Program-made: the position numbers and the translations under genes | Source of the DNA: Candidatus Woesearchaeota archaeon CG07_land_8_20_14_0_80_44_23 | GTDB taxonomy: Archaea > Nanobdellota > Nanobdellia > Woesearchaeales > 0-14-0-80-44-23 | Assembly: GCA_002779235.1 (NCBI GenBank) | Contig: PEXD01000077.1 | Coordinates: 1 to 33,170, forward strand | Direction: 5' to 3' | DNA: 33,170 nucleotides | Part shown: piece by piece, positions 27 to 32,515 of the stretch | Numbering within the stretch: position 1 is the stretch's first letter | How the letters are laid out: every line of letters begins with the position of its first letter | Notes under the pieces: generated by a model | Database searches by the model: none | What the model was told of the DNA's origin: nothing | Seen by the model: only the letters and a program-made list of their open reading frames with translations

Positions 27-198
27 GCCTTTCTGGAGAAGGGCTTTGGTATTTAAAGCTAGCCAAAAACAGCGCCTGTGCATCTTTTTAAATGCTTTGC
101 ATTTTTAGGCACAAAGACAGGGTCTTGTGCAAGGACAAGGTCCTGCACAAGAAATGCATTGCATTTCGTTGTGCCAAAAGCGCTTTGCGCTTTTAGGC
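27..198. repeat. Chain of at least six short imperfect palindromes (hairpins) that abut or share arms, downstream of the ABC permease gene
   Basis: Read directly: GCCTTTC/GAAGGGC (27-44). AAATGC ttt GCATTT (90-104). GCACAAAGAC agg GTCTTGTGC (109-130). GTGCAAGGAC aag GTCCTGCAC (127-148). GCACAAGAAATGC att GCATTTCGTTGTGC (145-174). GCCAAAAGCGC ttt GCGCTTTTAGGC (173-198). Most have 3-nt loops and a single-base bulge. TTTTAGGCAC recurs at 103-112 and 191-200. Confidence 0.6.
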
Positions 199-4149: not shown

Positions 4150-4186
4150 TTTTTTGCTCATCCTTATTCTTATTTATTCTTGTCTT
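4150..4186 (+). terminator. T-rich tract after the regulator gene (candidate archaeal oligo-T terminator)
   Basis: TTTTTTGCTCATCCTTATTCTTATTTATTCTTGTCTT directly follows the stop. The 12-mer TTATTTATTCTT recurs after the eL14 stop (about 29090-29101). Confidence 0.4.
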
Positions 4187-4189
4187 ACT

Positions 4190-4300
4190 GAAAAGCCGCC
4201 TACTTCGCACCCCGAAGGGGCCAACCCCCGCGAAGTCAGCCGTCTGCAAGACCTTCACCTGGTTTGGTCTTGCACTTGCAGACGGCTACGGTGGCTTTTC
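4190..4300 (+). ncRNA. Candidate structured RNA or palindromic element: 111-nt GC-rich three-way junction of unknown family
   Basis: Closing stem GAAAAGCCGCC (4190-4200) / GGTGGCTTTTC (4290-4300) has one G-T pair, which is a G-U wobble only on the + strand. Arm 1 is CTTCGC (4203-4208) / GCGAAG (4230-4235), enclosing CCCC/GGGG alternatives. Arm 2 is a perfect 12-bp stem GCCGTCTGCAAG (4239-4250) / CTTGCAGACGGC (4275-4286). It is flanked by AT-rich DNA, with a TATA-like TTATTTAT about 20 nt upstream and CTTTTC at the 3' end. Confidence 0.35.
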
Positions 4301-4305
4301 CCAGC

Positions 4306-4319
4306 ATAAATATTAAATA
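4306..4319 (+). promoter_or_regulatory. Candidate TATA region (ATAAATATTAAATA) for the mbf1-to-GT-C gene block
   Basis: The only strong A/T box between the GC-rich element and the mbf1 start, about 40 nt upstream of ATG 4353. Confidence 0.35.
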
Positions 4320-4352
4320 GGCGTTCCAATAAACCTTCTGCTGGTGGTGGAC

Positions 4353-6702: not shown

Positions 6703-8202
6703 ATGAAGCACAGCAACAAAAAAAAGAAAATAACGAAACATGCTGAAACCAAGAAAAAGAGAATAGCAATACTTCCAATAATTTACACAATAGTTGTCCT
6801 GCTCTTCATGTTTGCGGTTTTTCATGCATACAGGAATGCCTTCACGGGCGGGCTGCCTGCCGGAAGCGAGGGATATTATCATGAGCGCATGGCCAAGGCA
6901 ATAAATGAGAAGGGCATACTCTCATATGATTCCCTGAGCTTTTCCGGAAGGACTTACATATTCAGCGCCTATGACTATTTGCTGGCGCTGGCGGGAAAAG
7001 TGACAGGAGTCAGGGCTGCCTCAATCTGGATTCCCCTGGCAATGGCGATAATCTCAGTGTTTGCCTTCTACGGCATAATGCGCAAGTCAGGCATGAAGGA
7101 GAGCAGCATCAACATCGCCCTGCTTATACTCGCTGCAACACCTGCCTTCGCCTATTCTGCACTCACCTCAAACCCGCAGATAGCTGCTGCTGCATTTCTC
7201 CTCTCAGCTTTTTATTTTTACATGCGCGAGGAGAAAGCTGCAGTTGTGCTGAGCGCAATACTCTTCGGATTTGCATCGCTTTTCGGAGCGGCAGCTCTTT
7301 TGATATCGCTCTCAATTGCCGGCATATTCACAATCAAGCATCCGGAAAGGAAAAAAAGGTTTTCTGCACTGCTTGGAATATTTGCTTTAATGTCAGTTAC
7401 ATATATAATCACAATTGCAAAATTCGGGCTTTTGCCCATCTCTTTCGGGAAGAGCCTAAGCTCGATTGTGCTGGAGCTTGGGGCGCTCTCAGGGATAGGG
7501 ATATTTGAGCTGATACTCGCGGGGATTGGACTGCTTTATGCCTGGGCTTCAAAAGACAGGAACTACCTGCCAATCAGCATGACGGCGCTTTTGCTCCTGC
7601 TATTCTTATTCGGAATGAATGTAAGCGTGTATCTTGCCTTTGCATGCGCATTCTTTTCATCGCTTGCTATCAACTTTCTGGATGAAAGAAAATGGAGCCT
7701 TAACATCCTGAGAGGCGCGTCGATAATACTAATACTGTGCGGACTGCTGTTTTCGGGGCTCACATTCATGGGCAGGGCAGTCAATATGGAGCCGGATTCA
7801 GGAATCGTTGACGCGTTTTCATGGCTTTCCAATAACTATTCCGGGGGCAACGTGCTCTCAGTGCCAAAGAACGGCTTTTACACAGAATATTTCGGGATGA
7901 AGGCATTTAGCGACGACAATTTTGAATATGCGCCGAACCTCGAGCAGAGGCTCAACGCCTCGCAGCAGATATTTTACTCAAGGGACCTTGATAAAACAAT
8001 GGCAGAGCTGGCAAAAAACAACATAACATATATAGTGATAACCCCTGAGATGAAGAACGGGCTTGTGTGGAGAAAGGAGCAGGAGGGGCTGCTCTTTCTC
8101 CTGAGAAACAATGAAACATTCAAGAATGTTCATTTGGAAAGCACACAGGCCGGAAGTATTGAGATCTGGAATGTTGTGCCCCAGGTCCAAACCGCGGGTT
8201 AG
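6703..8202 (+). CDS. GT-C-fold integral membrane glycosyltransferase, paralog 2
   Basis: 499 aa, polytopic. Motifs GSEGYYHERMAKAI and LSFSGRTYIF. The C-terminal domain (GGNVLSVPKNGFYTEYF...NNITYIVITPEM) is collinear with the previous ORF. Starts 4 nt after its stop. Confidence 0.6.
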   Translation: MKHSNKKKKITKHAETKKKRIAILPIIYTIVVLLFMFAVFHAYRNAFTGGLPAGSEGYYHERMAKAINEKGILSYDSLSFSGRTYIFSAYDYLLALAGKVTGVRAASIWIPLAMAIISVFAFYGIMRKSGMKESSINIALLILAATPAFAYSALTSNPQIAAAAFLLSAFYFYMREEKAAVVLSAILFGFASLFGAAALLISLSIAGIFTIKHPERKKRFSALLGIFALMSVTYIITIAKFGLLPISFGKSLSSIVLELGALSGIGIFELILAGIGLLYAWASKDRNYLPISMTALLLLLFLFGMNVSVYLAFACAFFSSLAINFLDERKWSLNILRGASIILILCGLLFSGLTFMGRAVNMEPDSGIVDAFSWLSNNYSGGNVLSVPKNGFYTEYFGMKAFSDDNFEYAPNLEQRLNASQQIFYSRDLDKTMAELAKNNITYIVITPEMKNGLVWRKEQEGLLFLLRNNETFKNVHLESTQAGSIEIWNVVPQVQTAG

Positions 8203-8205
8203 ATT

Positions 8206-9456
8206 ATGAGCGCTGTTGATGTCATAACATGGATAATTTTTATCATCACCATATACTTCGCATTCTTCTGGCTCATAACATTCCTGGGAATGGGCCAGGA
8301 AAAGAAGAGGAAGGCGCTTAAGAAGTTTCCCCTTGTAAGCGTGGTAATACCCGCGTTCAATGAAGAGGAAACAATAACCGGGACAATGAAGTCAGTGGTG
8401 GAGCTGGACTACCCAAAAAACAAGATACAAATAATAGTTGTAAATGACGGGAGCACTGACTCGACAGAAAAAAAAGTAAAGGATTTCATAAAGAAGCATC
8501 CCGGCAGGAAGATAATGCTGATAAGCCAGAAAAACAGCGGGAAATGGGTGTGCATGAATGCCGGGCTTTCAGTTGCAAAGGGCGAATTCTTTGCCTGCCT
8601 TGACGCCGATTCTTTTGTTGAGAGGGAAACCCTCAAGAGGATGCTTCCCCGCTTTGTCGGAAGGACTGCTATCGTGCTTCCAATAATGAAGGTGAAAAAT
8701 CCAGAGAACATGCTCCAGAAGGTGCAATGGTATGAATATATTGTCAATATGTTCTACAAGAAGATTGCTGCCTACATAAACTGCGTGCATGTTGCTCCTG
8801 GCCCCTTCTCGCTGTACAGGACTTCTGTGCTGAGAAAGGTCGGCGGCTTCTGTTACGGATATGCCACAGAGGACCTGGAGATTGCGATGCGCCTTCAGAA
8901 GCACAATTACAGGATTGTCCAGACAATGGATGCAGAGGTCTACACAATAGCTCCTGACAACATGAGAGAGCTCTACAAGCAGAGGGTGCGCTGGAACAAG
9001 GGCTCCCTGCTGAATGCAATAAGCTACAGGGAGATGCTCTTCAACAGGGCTTACGGCGACTTTGCCATGATACAGATGCCCCTTGTGATTGCAGCTGGCT
9101 TCATATCTGCTGTCCTTATTGTGATATTCCTGTATTACGGCCTGCTGAAGCCCCTTTACAACCTGGCAAAAAAGGTGGTGCTGGTCCGCTTTGATATAAT
9201 GACGCTGATAATGAATATCCAGATAAACTCGAACATCCTTGATGCAGATTTCTACCGGCTTGTGATTGCGGTTTTCACCCTGGTCATTACAATCACCATA
9301 TTTGTAGCTGCCCACAGGCACAGCAAGGAGAAAATAGTTAAATACGGATTTTTTCCACTTCTCATTTACCTGTTCGTTTATTATATAGCGCTCGGCCTGA
9401 TATGGCTGGCAATACTCAAGGATTTGGCAATAAAGAAGTCGAGGATGAGATGGTAA
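8206..9456 (+). CDS. Family-2 glycosyltransferase of the processive membrane synthase type (NodC/PgaC/CesA-like)
   Basis: N-terminal TM. Motifs VSVVIPAFNEEETI, VVNDGSTD, LDADS (DxD), ATEDLE (TED) and QRVRWNKG (Q-x-x-RW). About four C-terminal TM spans follow. Confidence 0.85.
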   Translation: MSAVDVITWIIFIITIYFAFFWLITFLGMGQEKKRKALKKFPLVSVVIPAFNEEETITGTMKSVVELDYPKNKIQIIVVNDGSTDSTEKKVKDFIKKHPGRKIMLISQKNSGKWVCMNAGLSVAKGEFFACLDADSFVERETLKRMLPRFVGRTAIVLPIMKVKNPENMLQKVQWYEYIVNMFYKKIAAYINCVHVAPGPFSLYRTSVLRKVGGFCYGYATEDLEIAMRLQKHNYRIVQTMDAEVYTIAPDNMRELYKQRVRWNKGSLLNAISYREMLFNRAYGDFAMIQMPLVIAAGFISAVLIVIFLYYGLLKPLYNLAKKVVLVRFDIMTLIMNIQINSNILDADFYRLVIAVFTLVITITIFVAAHRHSKEKIVKYGFFPLLIYLFVYYIALGLIWLAILKDLAIKKSRMRW

Positions 9457-13991: not shown

Positions 13992-14801
13992 ATGCAATTA
14001 AATGTCTTAAACCTTGAAAAGAAGGAGATAAAAAAGGCAAAGCTCCCCTCCCAGTTTGAGGAGGAAGTCAGGTCTGACCTGATACAAAGGGCAGTCCTCG
14101 CCATTGAAAGAATAAGAAGGCATGCATACGGCGCAAAGAAGGATGCAGGAATGAGGCCCTCTGCAAAGCTTTCCAGAAGGAGAAGGAACTACAAGGGAAG
14201 CTACGGGAAGGGAATCTCAAGGGTGCCCAGGAAAACACTCAGCCACAGGGGCTCAAGCTTCTCCTGGGTGGGGGCAGTTGCCCCTGGAACAGTGGGAGGA
14301 AGAAGGGCGCACCCGCCGAAGAGCGAAAGAATCTGGGAGCAGAAGATAAACACAAAAGAGAGAAAGAAGGCAATAAGGAGCGCGCTCTCGGCAACAGTAA
14401 TGCCCGATATTGTCAGGGCAAGGGGGCACATAATCCCGAAGGAATACCCGTTCATAATCTCAAATGAAATAGAGGATGCCAAAAAGGCAAAGGACGTGCT
14501 GGCAGCACTAAAAAATCTGGGCTTTTCCGACGAGCTCAAAAAGGACAGCAAAGTAACAATAAGGGCCGGAAAGGGAAAGTCGAGGGGAAGAAGATACATT
14601 ACAAAAAGAGGAATGCTGATTGTGGTCTCAAAGGAGTGCGGCCTGATTTCAGCTGCAAAGAACCTGCCCCTTGAGGTGAAAAAGGTCACTGAGATAAACG
14701 CAGACGACCTCGCGCCGGGAGCAGTTGCCGGAAGGCTCACGCTCTTTACAGAAAGCGCAATAGATGCTATTGAAAAGCTGAATCTTTTCATGCCATCATA
14801 A
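13992..14801 (+). CDS. rpl4: 50S ribosomal protein uL4
   Basis: Typical archaeal L4 motifs (YGKGISRVPR, GGRRAHPPK, RAGKGKSRGRRY) and operon position. Confidence 0.95.
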   Translation: MQLNVLNLEKKEIKKAKLPSQFEEEVRSDLIQRAVLAIERIRRHAYGAKKDAGMRPSAKLSRRRRNYKGSYGKGISRVPRKTLSHRGSSFSWVGAVAPGTVGGRRAHPPKSERIWEQKINTKERKKAIRSALSATVMPDIVRARGHIIPKEYPFIISNEIEDAKKAKDVLAALKNLGFSDELKKDSKVTIRAGKGKSRGRRYITKRGMLIVVSKECGLISAAKNLPLEVKKVTEINADDLAPGAVAGRLTLFTESAIDAIEKLNLFMPS

Positions 14802-14943
14802 AAATTCGCGATTAAAAGCGAATTTTTAGTACAAAGAAATCTCTTGGAGATTTCTTGTCCAAGAAATGCGTAGCATTTCTTTGGATACAAAAAGGCGCTG
14901 TATCTCGCAACTAAAGAAATGAGTTTTAGCGCCTTTTTTGTAT
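14800..14943. repeat. Four head-to-tail hairpins filling the rpl4-rpl23 gap
   Basis: AAAAATTCGC (14800-09) / GCGAATTTTT (14818-27), 10 bp perfect. ACAAAGAAATCTC ttg GAGATTTCTTGT (14831-58). CCAAGAAATGC gta GCATTTCTTTGG (14859-84). ATACAAAAAGGCGC (14885-98) / GCGCCTTTTTTGTAT (14929-43). The last three each have a one-base bulge in the A/T run. Confidence 0.7.
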
Positions 14944-16362: not shown

Positions 16363-16833
16363 ATGAACTACTCATTCAAGCTATATAACAAGGAGCACAT
16401 GGCAAGGACATATGGCGCCTCGCTGAAGATATCCACAAAATATGCTGTGGAAGTCGCAAGAATGATACGGGGAAAGAGCCTCGCCAGGGCAAAGGCGATG
16501 CTCTCGGCAGTCATCTCAAAGGAAAAGGCAGTGCCATTCAAGAGAAGGCACGGAGACATGGCGCACCAAAAAGAAATTGGTGTGGGAAGGTTTCCGGTGA
16601 AGTGCAGCAGGGAAATCCTTTCACTGCTTGAGGGCGCAGAGAAGAACGCCCAGTTCCTCGGGCTTGACACATCCAGCCTCATAGTGAAGAGCATTGTCGC
16701 AAGCAAGGCGGCAGCGGTCCACAGGTATGGAAGGAAAAGGGGAAGGACCGGCAAAAGCACTCATGTTGAAATTGTCTTAGAAGAGACCAAGAAGCCAGAA
16801 AACAAGAAGGAAAAAAAGCCCGAGAAGAAGTAA
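16363..16833 (+). CDS. rpl22: 50S ribosomal protein uL22 (with K/E-rich C-terminal tail)
   Basis: ARTYGASLKISTKYAVEVARMIRGKSLARA pattern and operon position. Confidence 0.93.
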   Translation: MNYSFKLYNKEHMARTYGASLKISTKYAVEVARMIRGKSLARAKAMLSAVISKEKAVPFKRRHGDMAHQKEIGVGRFPVKCSREILSLLEGAEKNAQFLGLDTSSLIVKSIVASKAAAVHRYGRKRGRTGKSTHVEIVLEETKKPENKKEKKPEKK

Positions 16834-16965
16834 CAAAAATCGCCTGCTCGGAGCTTTAGAGCCCTTGCTTTATCGGCGATTTTTGAACATGAAAATCAAA
16901 GATTTTCAGTTCAAGAAATCATTTGATTTCTTTGAACTTCAAAAAGCTTTCGGCTTATTTGAAGT
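16834..16965. repeat. Four tandem hairpins filling the rpl22-rps3 gap
   Basis: CAAAAATCGCC (16834-44) / GGCGATTTTTG (16875-85), 11 bp perfect. GAAAATC aaa GATTTTC (16891-16907). TCAAGAAATCA tt TGATTTCTTTGA (16911-35, bulged). ACTTCAAA-AAGC tttcg GCTT-a-TTTGAAGT (16936-65). Confidence 0.7.
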
Positions 16966-19412: not shown

Positions 19413-19787
19413 ATGAAAACATTTTCATCTAAATGGAAAGGAAGCAGGCAGCCGAGGAAGCAGAGGAAATACCTGCACAATGCTCCTCTCAGCATAAAGA
19501 GAAGGATGGTATCAGCCCACCTTTCAGCCGAGCTTCGCAAGAGGTATGGCAAAAGGAATATTGCAATAAGAAAGGGCGACAAGGTCAAGGTAATGCGCGG
19601 AAGCATCAGGGGCAAGACCGGCACAATAGAATCCATTGACCTGAGAAAAATGAGCGTCCACGTTTCAGGCACGGACTTTACAAAGAGGGATGGAACAAAG
19701 GCAAGGGTTTCAATGGACGCCTCAAACCTTGTTGTAACCGAGCTGAACCTCAATGACAAGAAAAGAAAAGTAACAAAAAATTTGTAG
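19413..19787 (+). CDS. rpl24: 50S ribosomal protein uL24 (KOW)
   Basis: IRKGDKVKVMRGSIRGKTGTIESID KOW motif and operon position. Confidence 0.93.
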   Translation: MKTFSSKWKGSRQPRKQRKYLHNAPLSIKRRMVSAHLSAELRKRYGKRNIAIRKGDKVKVMRGSIRGKTGTIESIDLRKMSVHVSGTDFTKRDGTKARVSMDASNLVVTELNLNDKKRKVTKNL

Positions 19788-19834
19788 ACAAATTTTTGGA
19801 ACAAGAAATTGCGCATTAAACGCAATTTCTTTGT
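19774..19834. repeat. Two hairpins at and after the rpl24 stop
   Basis: AAAATTTG taga CAAATTTT spans the TAG stop (about 19777-19796). ACAAGAAATTGCG cattaaa CGCAATTTCTTTGT (19801-19834) is 13 bp with one bulged T and belongs to the same family as 14859-84. Confidence 0.6.
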
Positions 19835-26041: not shown

Positions 26042-27430
26042 ATGGCTGAAAAAAAACTGCCGGCAATATTCAGTTACTTTCCAGAAGTAAGCGTACCGAC
26101 GCAAAAGGTAGTGCCGTTCAAGGAAAAACTCAAGTGGACCCTCATAATTCTTGTGGCATTTTTTGTTCTCGGGCTGATACCGCTTTTCGGGCTCGGGCAG
26201 AATGCCCTCCAGCAGTTTGAATACCTTTCAATAATACTCGGGGCGGAATTCGGCTCCATGATAAGCCTTGGAATAGGGCCAATCATCACTGCATCAATAA
26301 TCCTGCAGCTTGTGGTGGGGGCAGGGCTCCTGAAAATTGACATAAACACGCCTGACGGAAGGAAATACTATGAGGGACTGCAGAAAATTCTATCACTGGC
26401 GTTCATAATACTTGAGGCAATGCTTTATGTGTATACTGGAGGGCTTGCGCCCAACGCAGGCATTCCAAATTTCGGCATCATGAGGCTGGTGCTGGTTTTC
26501 CAGCTGTTCCTCGGCGGGCTTCTGATAATGTTCATGGACGAGGTCACAACAAAATGGGGCTTCGGCTCAGGAATATCGCTGTTCATCGCAGCAGGCGTCT
26601 CAAAGAGCTTATTCATTTCAGCTTTATCCCCGATGAAAAGCCCGGCAAACCCGAGCGTCTTTATAGGAAGAATCCCAATGTTATTCAAGAGCCTCATAGA
26701 AGGGGACGTGCAGACCGCAGTGCTGATGTTCCTTGCGGTCTTCTTCACAGTTGCTATTTTCGTGCTTGCTGTCTATGTCCAGGCCATGAAAGTTGAGATT
26801 CCCCTCTCATTCGGAAGGGTAAGGGGGTATGGAATAAGATGGCCCCTGAATTTCATATACACAAGCAACATCCCTGTGATACTTGTGGCAGCGCTTATGG
26901 CGAATGTCCAGCTTTTTGCGCGACTATTCCAGAACTGGGGAAGGCCCATCCTGGGCACTTTTGTCGGGAACACTCCATCCACGGGAATTGTGGCATGGAT
27001 GAATGCGCCCAACATCGTTCAAAAGCTGGTTACAGGAAGCATGACAGGGCTTGACTGGGCTCACGCGCTGGTGTATATGCTCTTCATGATTGTGGGCGCA
27101 GTGATATTCTCAATATTCTGGGTGCAGACATCAGGCATGGACTCGCACAGCCAGGCAAAGCAGATAATGGCGTCCGGGCTTCAGGTGCCCGGATTCAGGA
27201 GGGATGAGCGCGTGCTTGAGAGAATACTCGACAGGTACATCTTCCCGCTGACAATAATGGGCGCAATAGCAGTGGGTTTCCTTGCCGCGCTTGCAGATGT
27301 CTCGGGAGCGCTTTCAAGAGGAACTGGAATACTCCTTGCAGTGATGATTATCTACCAGTTCTACGAGAAGATTGCAAAGGAGCATGCAATGGATATGAAT
27401 CCGCTTATAAAAAAATTCATAAAGACATGA
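26042..27430 (+). CDS. secY: Preprotein translocase subunit SecY
   Basis: 462 aa with 10 TM spans. KLKWTLIILVAFFVLG..., GIGPIITASIILQL, GSGISLFI motifs. Canonical position after rpl15. Confidence 0.97.
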   Translation: MAEKKLPAIFSYFPEVSVPTQKVVPFKEKLKWTLIILVAFFVLGLIPLFGLGQNALQQFEYLSIILGAEFGSMISLGIGPIITASIILQLVVGAGLLKIDINTPDGRKYYEGLQKILSLAFIILEAMLYVYTGGLAPNAGIPNFGIMRLVLVFQLFLGGLLIMFMDEVTTKWGFGSGISLFIAAGVSKSLFISALSPMKSPANPSVFIGRIPMLFKSLIEGDVQTAVLMFLAVFFTVAIFVLAVYVQAMKVEIPLSFGRVRGYGIRWPLNFIYTSNIPVILVAALMANVQLFARLFQNWGRPILGTFVGNTPSTGIVAWMNAPNIVQKLVTGSMTGLDWAHALVYMLFMIVGAVIFSIFWVQTSGMDSHSQAKQIMASGLQVPGFRRDERVLERILDRYIFPLTIMGAIAVGFLAALADVSGALSRGTGILLAVMIIYQFYEKIAKEHAMDMNPLIKKFIKT

Positions 27431-28213: not shown

Positions 28214-28277
28214 ATTTAACATTCATCCGCAATCTTTTTAAAGTGGAGATAAAAAAACAGGGTATAAGGAGTTCAAA

Positions 28278-32319: not shown

Positions 32320-32344
32320 AATCTATTCGGGAATAGAAAAATTC

Positions 32345-32352
32345 TATTTAAA
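32345..32352 (-). promoter_or_regulatory. TATA box (TTTAAATA on the minus strand) for pheST
   Basis: Centre is about 29 nt upstream of the pheS ATG (32319), consistent with a leaderless transcript. Confidence 0.5.
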
Positions 32353-32406
32353 TCTTTGTAATAGGTGTTTTAGGGGGCTAAAAACACCCTGATTTTGGGC
32401 ATTATT

Positions 32407-32500
32407 ATACTTACATAGTAAGTATTTAATATTACATAGTAAGTATAAAAAAGGATTAAAAAGAAATATTTATATATGATTCTACTTACATAATAAGTAT
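32407..32500. promoter_or_regulatory. Three copies of a 19-bp palindrome ATACTTAC-ATA-GTAAGTAT (candidate operator set)
   Basis: P1 32407-32425 is perfect. P2 32431-32446 has a perfect right arm and a partial left arm. P3 32482-32500 has one mismatch. The centres are 21 and 54 bp apart. P3 lies where the TSS of the downstream gene is expected. Confidence 0.6.
32469..32476 (+). promoter_or_regulatory. Consensus TATA box TTTATATA for the double-HTH gene
   Basis: Exact archaeal consensus with a purine-rich upstream flank (AAAAGAAATA). It lies about 40 nt upstream of the GTG at 32516. Confidence 0.5.
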
Positions 32501-32515
32501 ATTAGTATTATTTTT

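Follow-up and report, generated by a model that had tools for sequence, protein, structure and literature searches.

Recurrent bulged hairpins in a 33,170-nt stretch of DNA from Candidatus Woesearchaeota archaeon CG07_land_8_20_14_0_80_44_23 (contig PEXD01000077.1 of assembly GCA_002779235.1, hereafter the window) are most probably modules of small non-coding mobile elements, which we call hairpin cassettes, residing in intergenic spacers of Woesearchaeota and Nanoarchaeota (DPANN archaea). In a cassette, two to four or more imperfect palindromes abut one another, their 5′ arms A-rich and their 3′ arms T-rich. Cassettes insert as discrete blocks, persist, duplicate to other loci, nest in loops and occur in both orientations. 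An earlier note on this DNA had pointed to such hairpins in the archaeal ribosomal-protein operon of the window, which is of the S10/spc type and in which Pfam analyses confirmed the genes coding for L3, L4, L23, L2, L22, S3, L24, S4e and an EMC3-type insertase. The named nearest homologues of its L2 protein are from 'Candidatus Woesearchaeota archaeon', and the window sequence also occurs in groundwater metagenomes, among them SRR1534154 of PRJNA229517, SRR5435975, SRR6240753/82 and the JGI Ga0210016-57 samples, and in the NCBI metagenome-assembled genome (MAG) GCA_002762765.1.

Re-measurement of the operon agreed with the earlier note that, from rpl3 through the insertase gene, neighbouring genes overlap or are at most 37 nt apart except at gaps of 158 nt (rpl4-rpl23), 156 nt (rpl22-rps3) and 65 nt (rpl24-rps4e). 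From alignment of the junctions, these three gaps are lineage-specific insertions of 147, 134 and 63 nt (blocks B, C and D, respectively), since the corresponding junctions are compact in contig L019 (GCA_026394955.1), which shares ~96% DNA identity with the window, and in contigs L022 to L027, whose L2 protein is 82% identical. The rpl4-rpl23 and rpl22-rps3 junctions, 158 and 156 nt in the window, measure 14 and 22 nt in L019, from which blocks B and C are absent, and 14 and 19 nt in L022 to L027, in which rpl24 overlaps rps4e by 4 nt. The empty site of block B in L019 and L020 reads CATGCCAT^AAAAAAGGG (the caret marks the insertion point) in a 14-nt junction, and the block follows the T of the rpl4 stop codon. 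Block C likewise follows the T of the rpl22 stop codon, with GAAGAAGT^GAAT as its empty site. Deletion of block D in silico, using a boundary inferred from a relative with only ~76% DNA identity, yields a protein ending in KRKVTEGKKK with a TGA stop codon that overlaps the ATG of rps4e, as in L022. The 65-nt rpl24-rps4e gap is not an enlarged spacer but the product of an insertion into coding DNA, at the 3′ end of rpl24. For blocks B, C and D, the upstream frame still terminates and the downstream Shine-Dalgarno sequence is intact in each case.

Cassettes are still moving in the natural population. The window, L001, L010 and L013 carry block C and L002, L003, L011 and L014 lack it; all these contigs are at least 98.5% identical to the window and, except for L014, at least 99.8% identical. 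The empty allele matches the outgroup junction apart from a single base that lies a few nucleotides downstream from where the block inserted, and block C is therefore a gain. A further block, E, located ~600 nt beyond position 1 of the window, is present in L262 and absent from L263. All contigs that reach the junction and code for an identical L4 or L23 protein carry block B. Many independent contigs stop exactly at block edges (window positions 16831, 16876, 16971 and 14947), and the sequence of the window was recovered in at least ten independent assemblies (JGI, ENA, Logan and NCBI). Two other indels among these contigs, an 11-nt tandem duplication (ATAAAGACATG) at the 3′ end of secY in L011 (window position 27418) and a run of N in L014, were considered as candidates for a link to cassettes and proved unrelated to them.

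A metagenome scan revealed copies of block C at L271/L276, L272 and L281 with 94–96% identity over 137–145 nt and with unrelated flanks, bringing the total to four loci including the window. All of these copies are intergenic, those of L271 and L281 lying in opposite orientations on the single 936-kb contig Ga0315279_10000002, and the contigs that carry them have a tetranucleotide signature like that of the window (r = 0.90–0.97). L276 also contains a 95% identical copy of the second half of block E, and its positions 1701–1866 match the reverse complement of the long hairpin of block B at 58 of 60 positions; the loop of this long hairpin in L276 holds a further 105-nt block of four hairpins, a nested insertion. 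Among the roles offered in the earlier note, that of mobile palindromes resembling repetitive extragenic palindromic (REP) sequences or MITEs (miniature inverted-repeat transposable elements) finds strong support in the empty sites in relatives, the polymorphism in the population, the near-identical paralogues and the contig breaks at the blocks. What moves, however, is not the single hairpin but the whole multi-hairpin block of 63–147 nt. As a separate observation, comparison of L281 (10803–10896) with L276 (570–595) revealed a ~70-nt indel between ~98% identical strains, composed of other small hairpins, ATAGGCAAG...CTTGCCTAT and AGAAGACTTTAA...TTAAAGTCTTCT; further families of hairpin elements may thus be mobile in the lineage of the window.

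The hairpin that defines the family is 25–34 nt long, and a bulge of one base holds the same position in every copy. Its most conserved module is CAAGAAAT(GC)-loop-(GC)ATTTCTTTG with a bulged T. The search pattern CAAGAAAT-N(2-25)-ATTTCNTTG matched the window five times, at 148–171 (+), 14832–14857 (−), 14860–14883 (+), 16912–16934 (+) and 19802–19833 (+), and found no match in 100 dinucleotide shuffles, thereby recovering all five copies reported in the earlier note. The bulge is a T in four of them and a G in the copy at 145–174, also as reported. The rpl4-rpl23 gap does consist of four abutting hairpins, with a predicted fold of −58.2 kcal/mol compared to −29.0 ± 3.7 kcal/mol for shuffled sequences (z = −8.0). 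More generally, 12 of the 21 hairpins of at least 9 bp fall in non-coding DNA, which makes up 6.5% of the window. Two family copies in block B, at 14831–14858 (−) and 14859–14884 (+), form an inverted doublet, which was also found in contigs L209, L222, L231, L279, L280 and L283.

We aligned 32 distinct copies, in which the eight core pairs are fixed by the search pattern and hence uninformative. Covariation is seen in the two to three pairs that flank the core on either side (UA/CG/AU, AU/GC/UA/CG and GC/CG/UA/AU). Pairing was observed in 96.4% of the cells, every slid register collapsed, and double changes occupied 45 cells compared to 11.9 ± 2.8 in shuffles (none of 500 shuffles reached 45). 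The apical complementarity seen in the five copies of the window thus holds in the larger alignment. It had been taken to mean that structure rather than sequence is selected; the constraint on structure stands, but sequence is constrained as well, in the basal CAAGAAAT/ATTTCTTTG, in the bulged T and in a G at position −3, across genomes of 29–48% GC. This G is present in 35 of 38 copies, and ATTT(C/T)TTG occupies positions −10 to −3 in most of the 38, with the consensus base found in 27–35 of them at each position. The conserved basal sequence, bulge and G at −3 point to recognition by a protein, which would read more than structure alone. A mismatched bulge matters for binding by REP-associated tyrosine transposases (RAYTs; PMC3479197). 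Complementarity alone does not reveal which form of a DNA palindrome counts, be it RNA, single-stranded DNA or duplex DNA.

The blocks share modules and module order. Block B (14797–14943, + strand), delimited by junction alignment, interrupts the rpl4 stop codon (CCAT^AA), gives rpl4 one extra Ser codon and a new TAA, and is flanked by a 2-nt AT repeat. Its first hairpin (14799–14828, +), TAAAAATTCGC-gattaaaa-GCGAATTTTTA, shares homology with the outer arms of block E's long hairpin. It is followed by the inverted family copy (14831–14858, −), which reads ACAAAGAAATCTC-ttg-GAGATTTCTTGT on the + strand, then by the family copy CCAAGAAATGC-gta-GCATTTCTTTGG (14859–14884, +), which completes the inverted doublet, similar to REPINs (hairpin-forming REP doublets), and finally by a long hairpin, ATACAAAAAGGCGCT...AGCGCCTTTTTTGTAT (14885–14943, +), with CTAAAG in its loop. 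Block C (16832–16965, −) interrupts the rpl22 stop codon (AAGT^GA), converting TGA to TAA, and comprises a long hairpin at 16834–16885 with CTTTAG inside, GAAAATC-aaa-GATTTTC at 16891–16907, the family copy at 16911–16935 and a terminal hairpin at 16937–16964. Read on the − strand, it has the same module order as block B, so that the two blocks lie in opposite orientations in one operon. Block D (19772–19834, +), inside the 3′ coding end of rpl24, is composed of the hairpin CAAAAAATTTGT-ag-ACAAATTTTTGG (19774–19799) and a family copy (19801–19834), with GTAACA repeated on both sides. Block A (61–205, no strand assigned), recognized by sequence, fold and pattern match, is a series of abutting bulged hairpins downstream of an ABC-2 permease gene, in which the family copy GCACAAGAAATGC-att-GCATTTCGTTGTGC (145–174), the one with the G bulge, is followed by CCAAAAGCGC-ttt-GCGCTTTTAGG. 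The order of a CAAGAAAT hairpin followed by a CAAAAGCGC hairpin is common to blocks A, B and C. Block E (L262, 13018–13156; 139 nt), downstream of an AAA_18 gene, is flanked by AT and consists of nested hairpins that include a CCGGACTTTAGTCCGG mini-hairpin and lack the CAAGAAAT hairpin.

Further copies of the bulged hairpin exist at other loci and in other genomes. All copy counts rest on the window and on stretches from a genome-contig scan and the metagenome scan, none of which is a complete genome. The genome-contig scan returned at least 114 stretches, which show enrichment in DPANN and do not amount to a census; among the matches listed, true hairpins concentrate in Woesearchaeota and Nanoarchaeota MAGs of 29–48% GC. 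Also among the matches listed, 30 of 36 distinct copies in DPANN-type loci (window, genome scan and metagenome scan) are hairpin-like, compared to 5 of 87 chance matches in non-DPANN loci of the genome scan. Counting perfect hairpins per 10 kb gave no separation between DPANN and bacterial control loci, because the pattern had served to select all of them. Copies were also found between convergent genes and at unrelated loci, and a conserved order of modules recurs, namely a CAAAGAAAT hairpin, a CAAGAAATGC hairpin and a long A-arm/T-arm hairpin enclosing a small CTAAAG-loop hairpin. In the MAG Tobar13.5m-G65, an identical core is present on at least eight contigs, and on one contig of a co-sampled bin. 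The core hairpin lies 87–214 nt from the contig end in six of these nine stretches, and the six contigs begin or end within a multi-hairpin element, at least 310 nt long and ~97% identical among them. Gain and loss of modules between similar arms were seen in this MAG.

Some matches carry other taxonomic labels. Contig L156 (JAIPIH010000058.1; 33% GC), labelled Cloacimonadota and sampled with the Woesearchaeota MAG Tobar13.5m-G65, starts in the same multi-hairpin element (~97% identical); it probably belongs to Woesearchaeota and was mis-binned. Third-party annotation 'binchicken' MAGs titled 'uncultured Methanosarcinales archaeon' (L183, L190, L191, L218, L222, L241 and L244) have 21–41% GC, and most of these stretches bear the hairpin, L183 having a degenerate copy only and L191 a chance match only. 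A presence of the family in Methanosarcinales (six MAG labels) was rejected for CAYXTQ01 (L241, 29% GC), the only label checked, whose title appears wrong because the named relatives of its AglB/STT3 protein are only Woesearchaeota, Nanoarchaeota and Pacearchaeota. A viral origin of the cassettes was likewise rejected, as neither the doublet pattern nor the commonest form of the hairpin had any match in IMG/VR; with the bare 17-base core, the matches listed (at least 120) were single chance occurrences and none was a hairpin, which made that scan uninformative.

Cassettes are presumably moved in trans by an enzyme that recognizes the conserved bulged hairpin. Our tentative candidate is a single-strand HUH/Y1 transposase that binds hairpins, of the IS200/IS605-RAYT type, weakly preferred over a DDE transposase making a 2-bp target duplication, which is possible though doubtful. 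The repeats flanking the blocks are AT for B, AT for E, GAAGT for C and, as inferred, GTAACA for D. The GT of GAAGT recurs immediately to the left of two other copies of block C, and the element itself ends in GT. Such repeats fit either a 2-bp target duplication or an insertion in the manner of IS200/IS605, beside a motif that resembles the 3′ end of the element. Modules would probably be added or removed by recombination or slippage between similar arms. Any effect on transcripts, with a hairpin and U-tract acting as attenuator or stabilizer, would be a consequence of insertion and not its cause.

A sibling strain (L267, ENA ERZ27293391 k141_87124; 99.8% identical) carries at 7163–8478, in the gap between the insertase gene and rpl34e, a 1.3-kb element of the IS200/IS605 family that codes for a 408-aa TnpB (PF07282, PF12323) and no TnpA. 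Elements coding for TnpB only need a Y1 TnpA in trans. The presence of this element in the same operon indicates that mobility of the IS200/IS605 type is active in the population. Its left flank ends in GAATTTAAC and its right end in GGGTATTTCAC. Where it sits, the window has ATTCATCCGCAATCTTTTTAA (~28221–28241), and the two strains are therefore not a simple filled/empty pair. Derivation of the cassettes from this element was rejected since the ends are unrelated.

Several observations weigh against cassettes as transposed elements. Searches with an IS200-like consensus and with IS608 TnpA detected no transposase in DPANN loci among the ~6,100 open reading frames (ORFs) of all collected loci, which represent only a little of each genome; no further tnpB gene was found in the DPANN loci among the same ORFs. 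A search of the cassette-bearing loci with the left and right ends of the L267 element (blastn-short) gave only a chance 15-mer in a coding region. With lengths of 2, 2, 5 and 6 nt, the flanking repeats follow no single rule of target duplication, and the terminal inverted repeats amount to weak A-rich and T-rich arms. Some gain and loss of modules could come from recombination between similar arms and not from transposition. Finally, the GTAG or CGTC tetranucleotide conserved at the foot of REP hairpins (PMC3733652, PMC3479197), or its complement, lies within 14 nt of either end in none of 38 distinct copies.

A more specific form of the mobile-element reading would make the cassettes an archaeal counterpart of REPIN-RAYT or a new hairpin-targeting system, in which an HUH-type enzyme, resident in Woesearchaeales and inherited vertically, would move A/T-rich bulged doublets and cassettes as single-stranded DNA, preferentially into stop-codon-proximal spacers and cassette loops, thereby building nested arrays. 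We consider this rather unlikely as it stands.

The hairpins could instead act in cis at the level of RNA, as archaeal terminators, attenuators, processing sites or 3′-end stabilizers selected to partition the polycistron, and would have spread through selection for such a role. They lie in transcribed spacers and are each followed by a run of five or six T on the sense strand, their fold is very stable and their pairs covary, with G.U as the outermost pair in 13 copies compared to G-C in 12, as suits a single-stranded fold. Yet the blocks are absent from the same junctions in the 96%-identical relative and block C is polymorphic, and they are therefore not required for expression of the operon. 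Blocks B and C have opposite orientations, copies occur between convergent genes and at unrelated loci, and T-runs in an essential operon are likelier a cost than a benefit. No Rfam family matches: a search of Rfam 15 gave no hit at the gathering score or at permissive thresholds, the best sub-threshold hit scoring 23 bits against a gathering score of 176. A scan for sigma-70 promoters and intrinsic terminators, whose models are ill-suited to archaea, did not flag the blocks. Selection as RNA elements is thus quite unlikely. Of the RNA-processing and protein-binding roles listed in the earlier note, what remains is that they are possible side effects; they do not account for the origin of gaps that the 96%-identical relative lacks.

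A decidedly improbable alternative is that the conserved part is a duplex dyad bound by a chromatin, replication or regulatory protein, such as ATTTCTTG-NN-CAAGAAAT at the junction of adjacent hairpins, with arrays growing by recombination. The ATTT(C/T)TTG stretch described above completes a perfect 8+8 dyad in most of the 38 copies, sequence is conserved beyond pairing in genomes of 29–48% GC, and modules were gained and lost between similar arms in the Tobar MAG. This explanation nevertheless leaves unaccounted for the sharp-ended units of 134–139 nt, the empty sites and the copies of block C at unrelated loci, as well as the conserved bulge, which breaks the symmetry of a duplex. An origin of the gaps by local slippage, duplication, palindrome amplification or assembly artefact, with no dispersed family, is barely credible: the hairpins are alike and abutting, and repeats confuse assemblers and contigs do break there, but the same sequence came out of those ten or more independent assemblies, and other loci and other genomes carry dispersed copies.

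Read as mobile elements, the cassettes are a REP-, BIME- (bacterial interspersed mosaic element) or MITE-like family, in a new variant that resides in DPANN archaea. Like REP, BIME and REPIN sequences of Proteobacteria, they are imperfect palindromes, short and extragenic, in which a mismatch or bulge is conserved; they form inverted doublets and mosaic clusters, sit in transcribed operon spacers or at 3′ ends, and are multi-copy and vertically retained in a lineage. Their arms are A/T-rich, whereas those of REP sequences are G+C-rich, and their mobile unit is made of two to four or more different hairpins that can nest in each other's loops. Unlike REP-RAYT systems, they reside in an archaeon, and no RAYT was found in the ~6,100 ORFs of the collected loci with the IS200-like and IS608 TnpA queries. 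REP palindromes measure 20–40 nt, number tens to hundreds per genome and go with a single-copy RAYT (HUH/Y1) gene that they typically flank; the 33 kb of the window contain five copies of the bulged hairpin. REPINs have been stated as not detected in archaea (bioRxiv 10.1101/2021.07.10.451892).

Correia elements of Neisseria (Correia repeat enclosed elements, CREE), enterobacterial repetitive intergenic consensus sequences or intergenic repeat units (ERIC/IRU) and the RUP (repeat unit of pneumococcus) and BOX elements of pneumococcus resemble the cassettes in being non-coding and ~60–150 nt long (cassettes exceed 300 nt in one MAG), in their insertion polymorphism with empty sites and 2-nt flanking repeat, in their transcribed intergenic targets and in folding as long hairpins; the cassettes are also modular, like BOX. 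Correia elements duplicate TA. The cassettes differ in their weak terminal inverted repeats, in a flanking repeat of variable length that is AT or GT and not TA, and in being chains of separate small hairpins where the others are one long inverted repeat. No parent insertion sequence (IS) was found in the collected loci, the sole IS there having unrelated ends.

With IS200/IS605 derivatives such as palindrome-associated transposable elements (PATEs) and the IS1341-type elements coding for TnpB only, the cassettes share imperfect subterminal hairpins and insertion beside a short motif resembling their own 3′ end (left flanks ending in GT or AT, with the same ends), and a TnpB-only member of that family is active in the same population and operon. 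However, cassette ends share no sequence with the IS of L267, no TnpA was seen in the collected loci, and a 2-nt duplication, if real, is not expected from peel-and-paste transposition. A census of archaeal MITEs (NAR 2024) lists 'a Woesearchaea genome' among the highest MITE densities, with 105 per Mb (PMC11602168), and a high load of small non-autonomous elements in this clade is thus on record; that census is a count based on terminal inverted repeats and contains no account of the present hairpin family, be it of modules, targets or population dynamics.

Two other regions of the window stand apart from the cassettes. The G+C-rich 194-nt spacer between a TFIIE-alpha-like helix-turn-helix gene and an HTH_3 gene (4150–4343) has a stable predicted fold (−62.5 kcal/mol) and no Rfam match, is unlike the A/T-armed hairpin family, and could be a non-coding RNA or another repeat. 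The divergent promoter region by the PheRS alpha gene (32320–32515) contains three copies of the palindromic motif (T)ACTTACATAGTAAGTA(T), a set that looks like an operator array.

DPANN genomes are among the smallest and most compact cellular genomes, yet selfish cassettes are actively inserted and lost in them, and insertion reaches the stop codons and last codons of essential ribosomal-protein genes. Filled and empty alleles in strains ~0.1% apart provide a natural system for the rate of transposition and its fitness cost in an uncultivated symbiont. The cassettes account for assembly breaks at particular spots and are usable as strain-level markers. The conserved bulged hairpin offers a bait for the enzyme and, should that enzyme be RAYT-like, long-term associations of element and host of the REPIN-RAYT type would extend to archaea. 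In organisms poor in regulators, modules made of a hairpin and a U-tract may rewire termination in operons.

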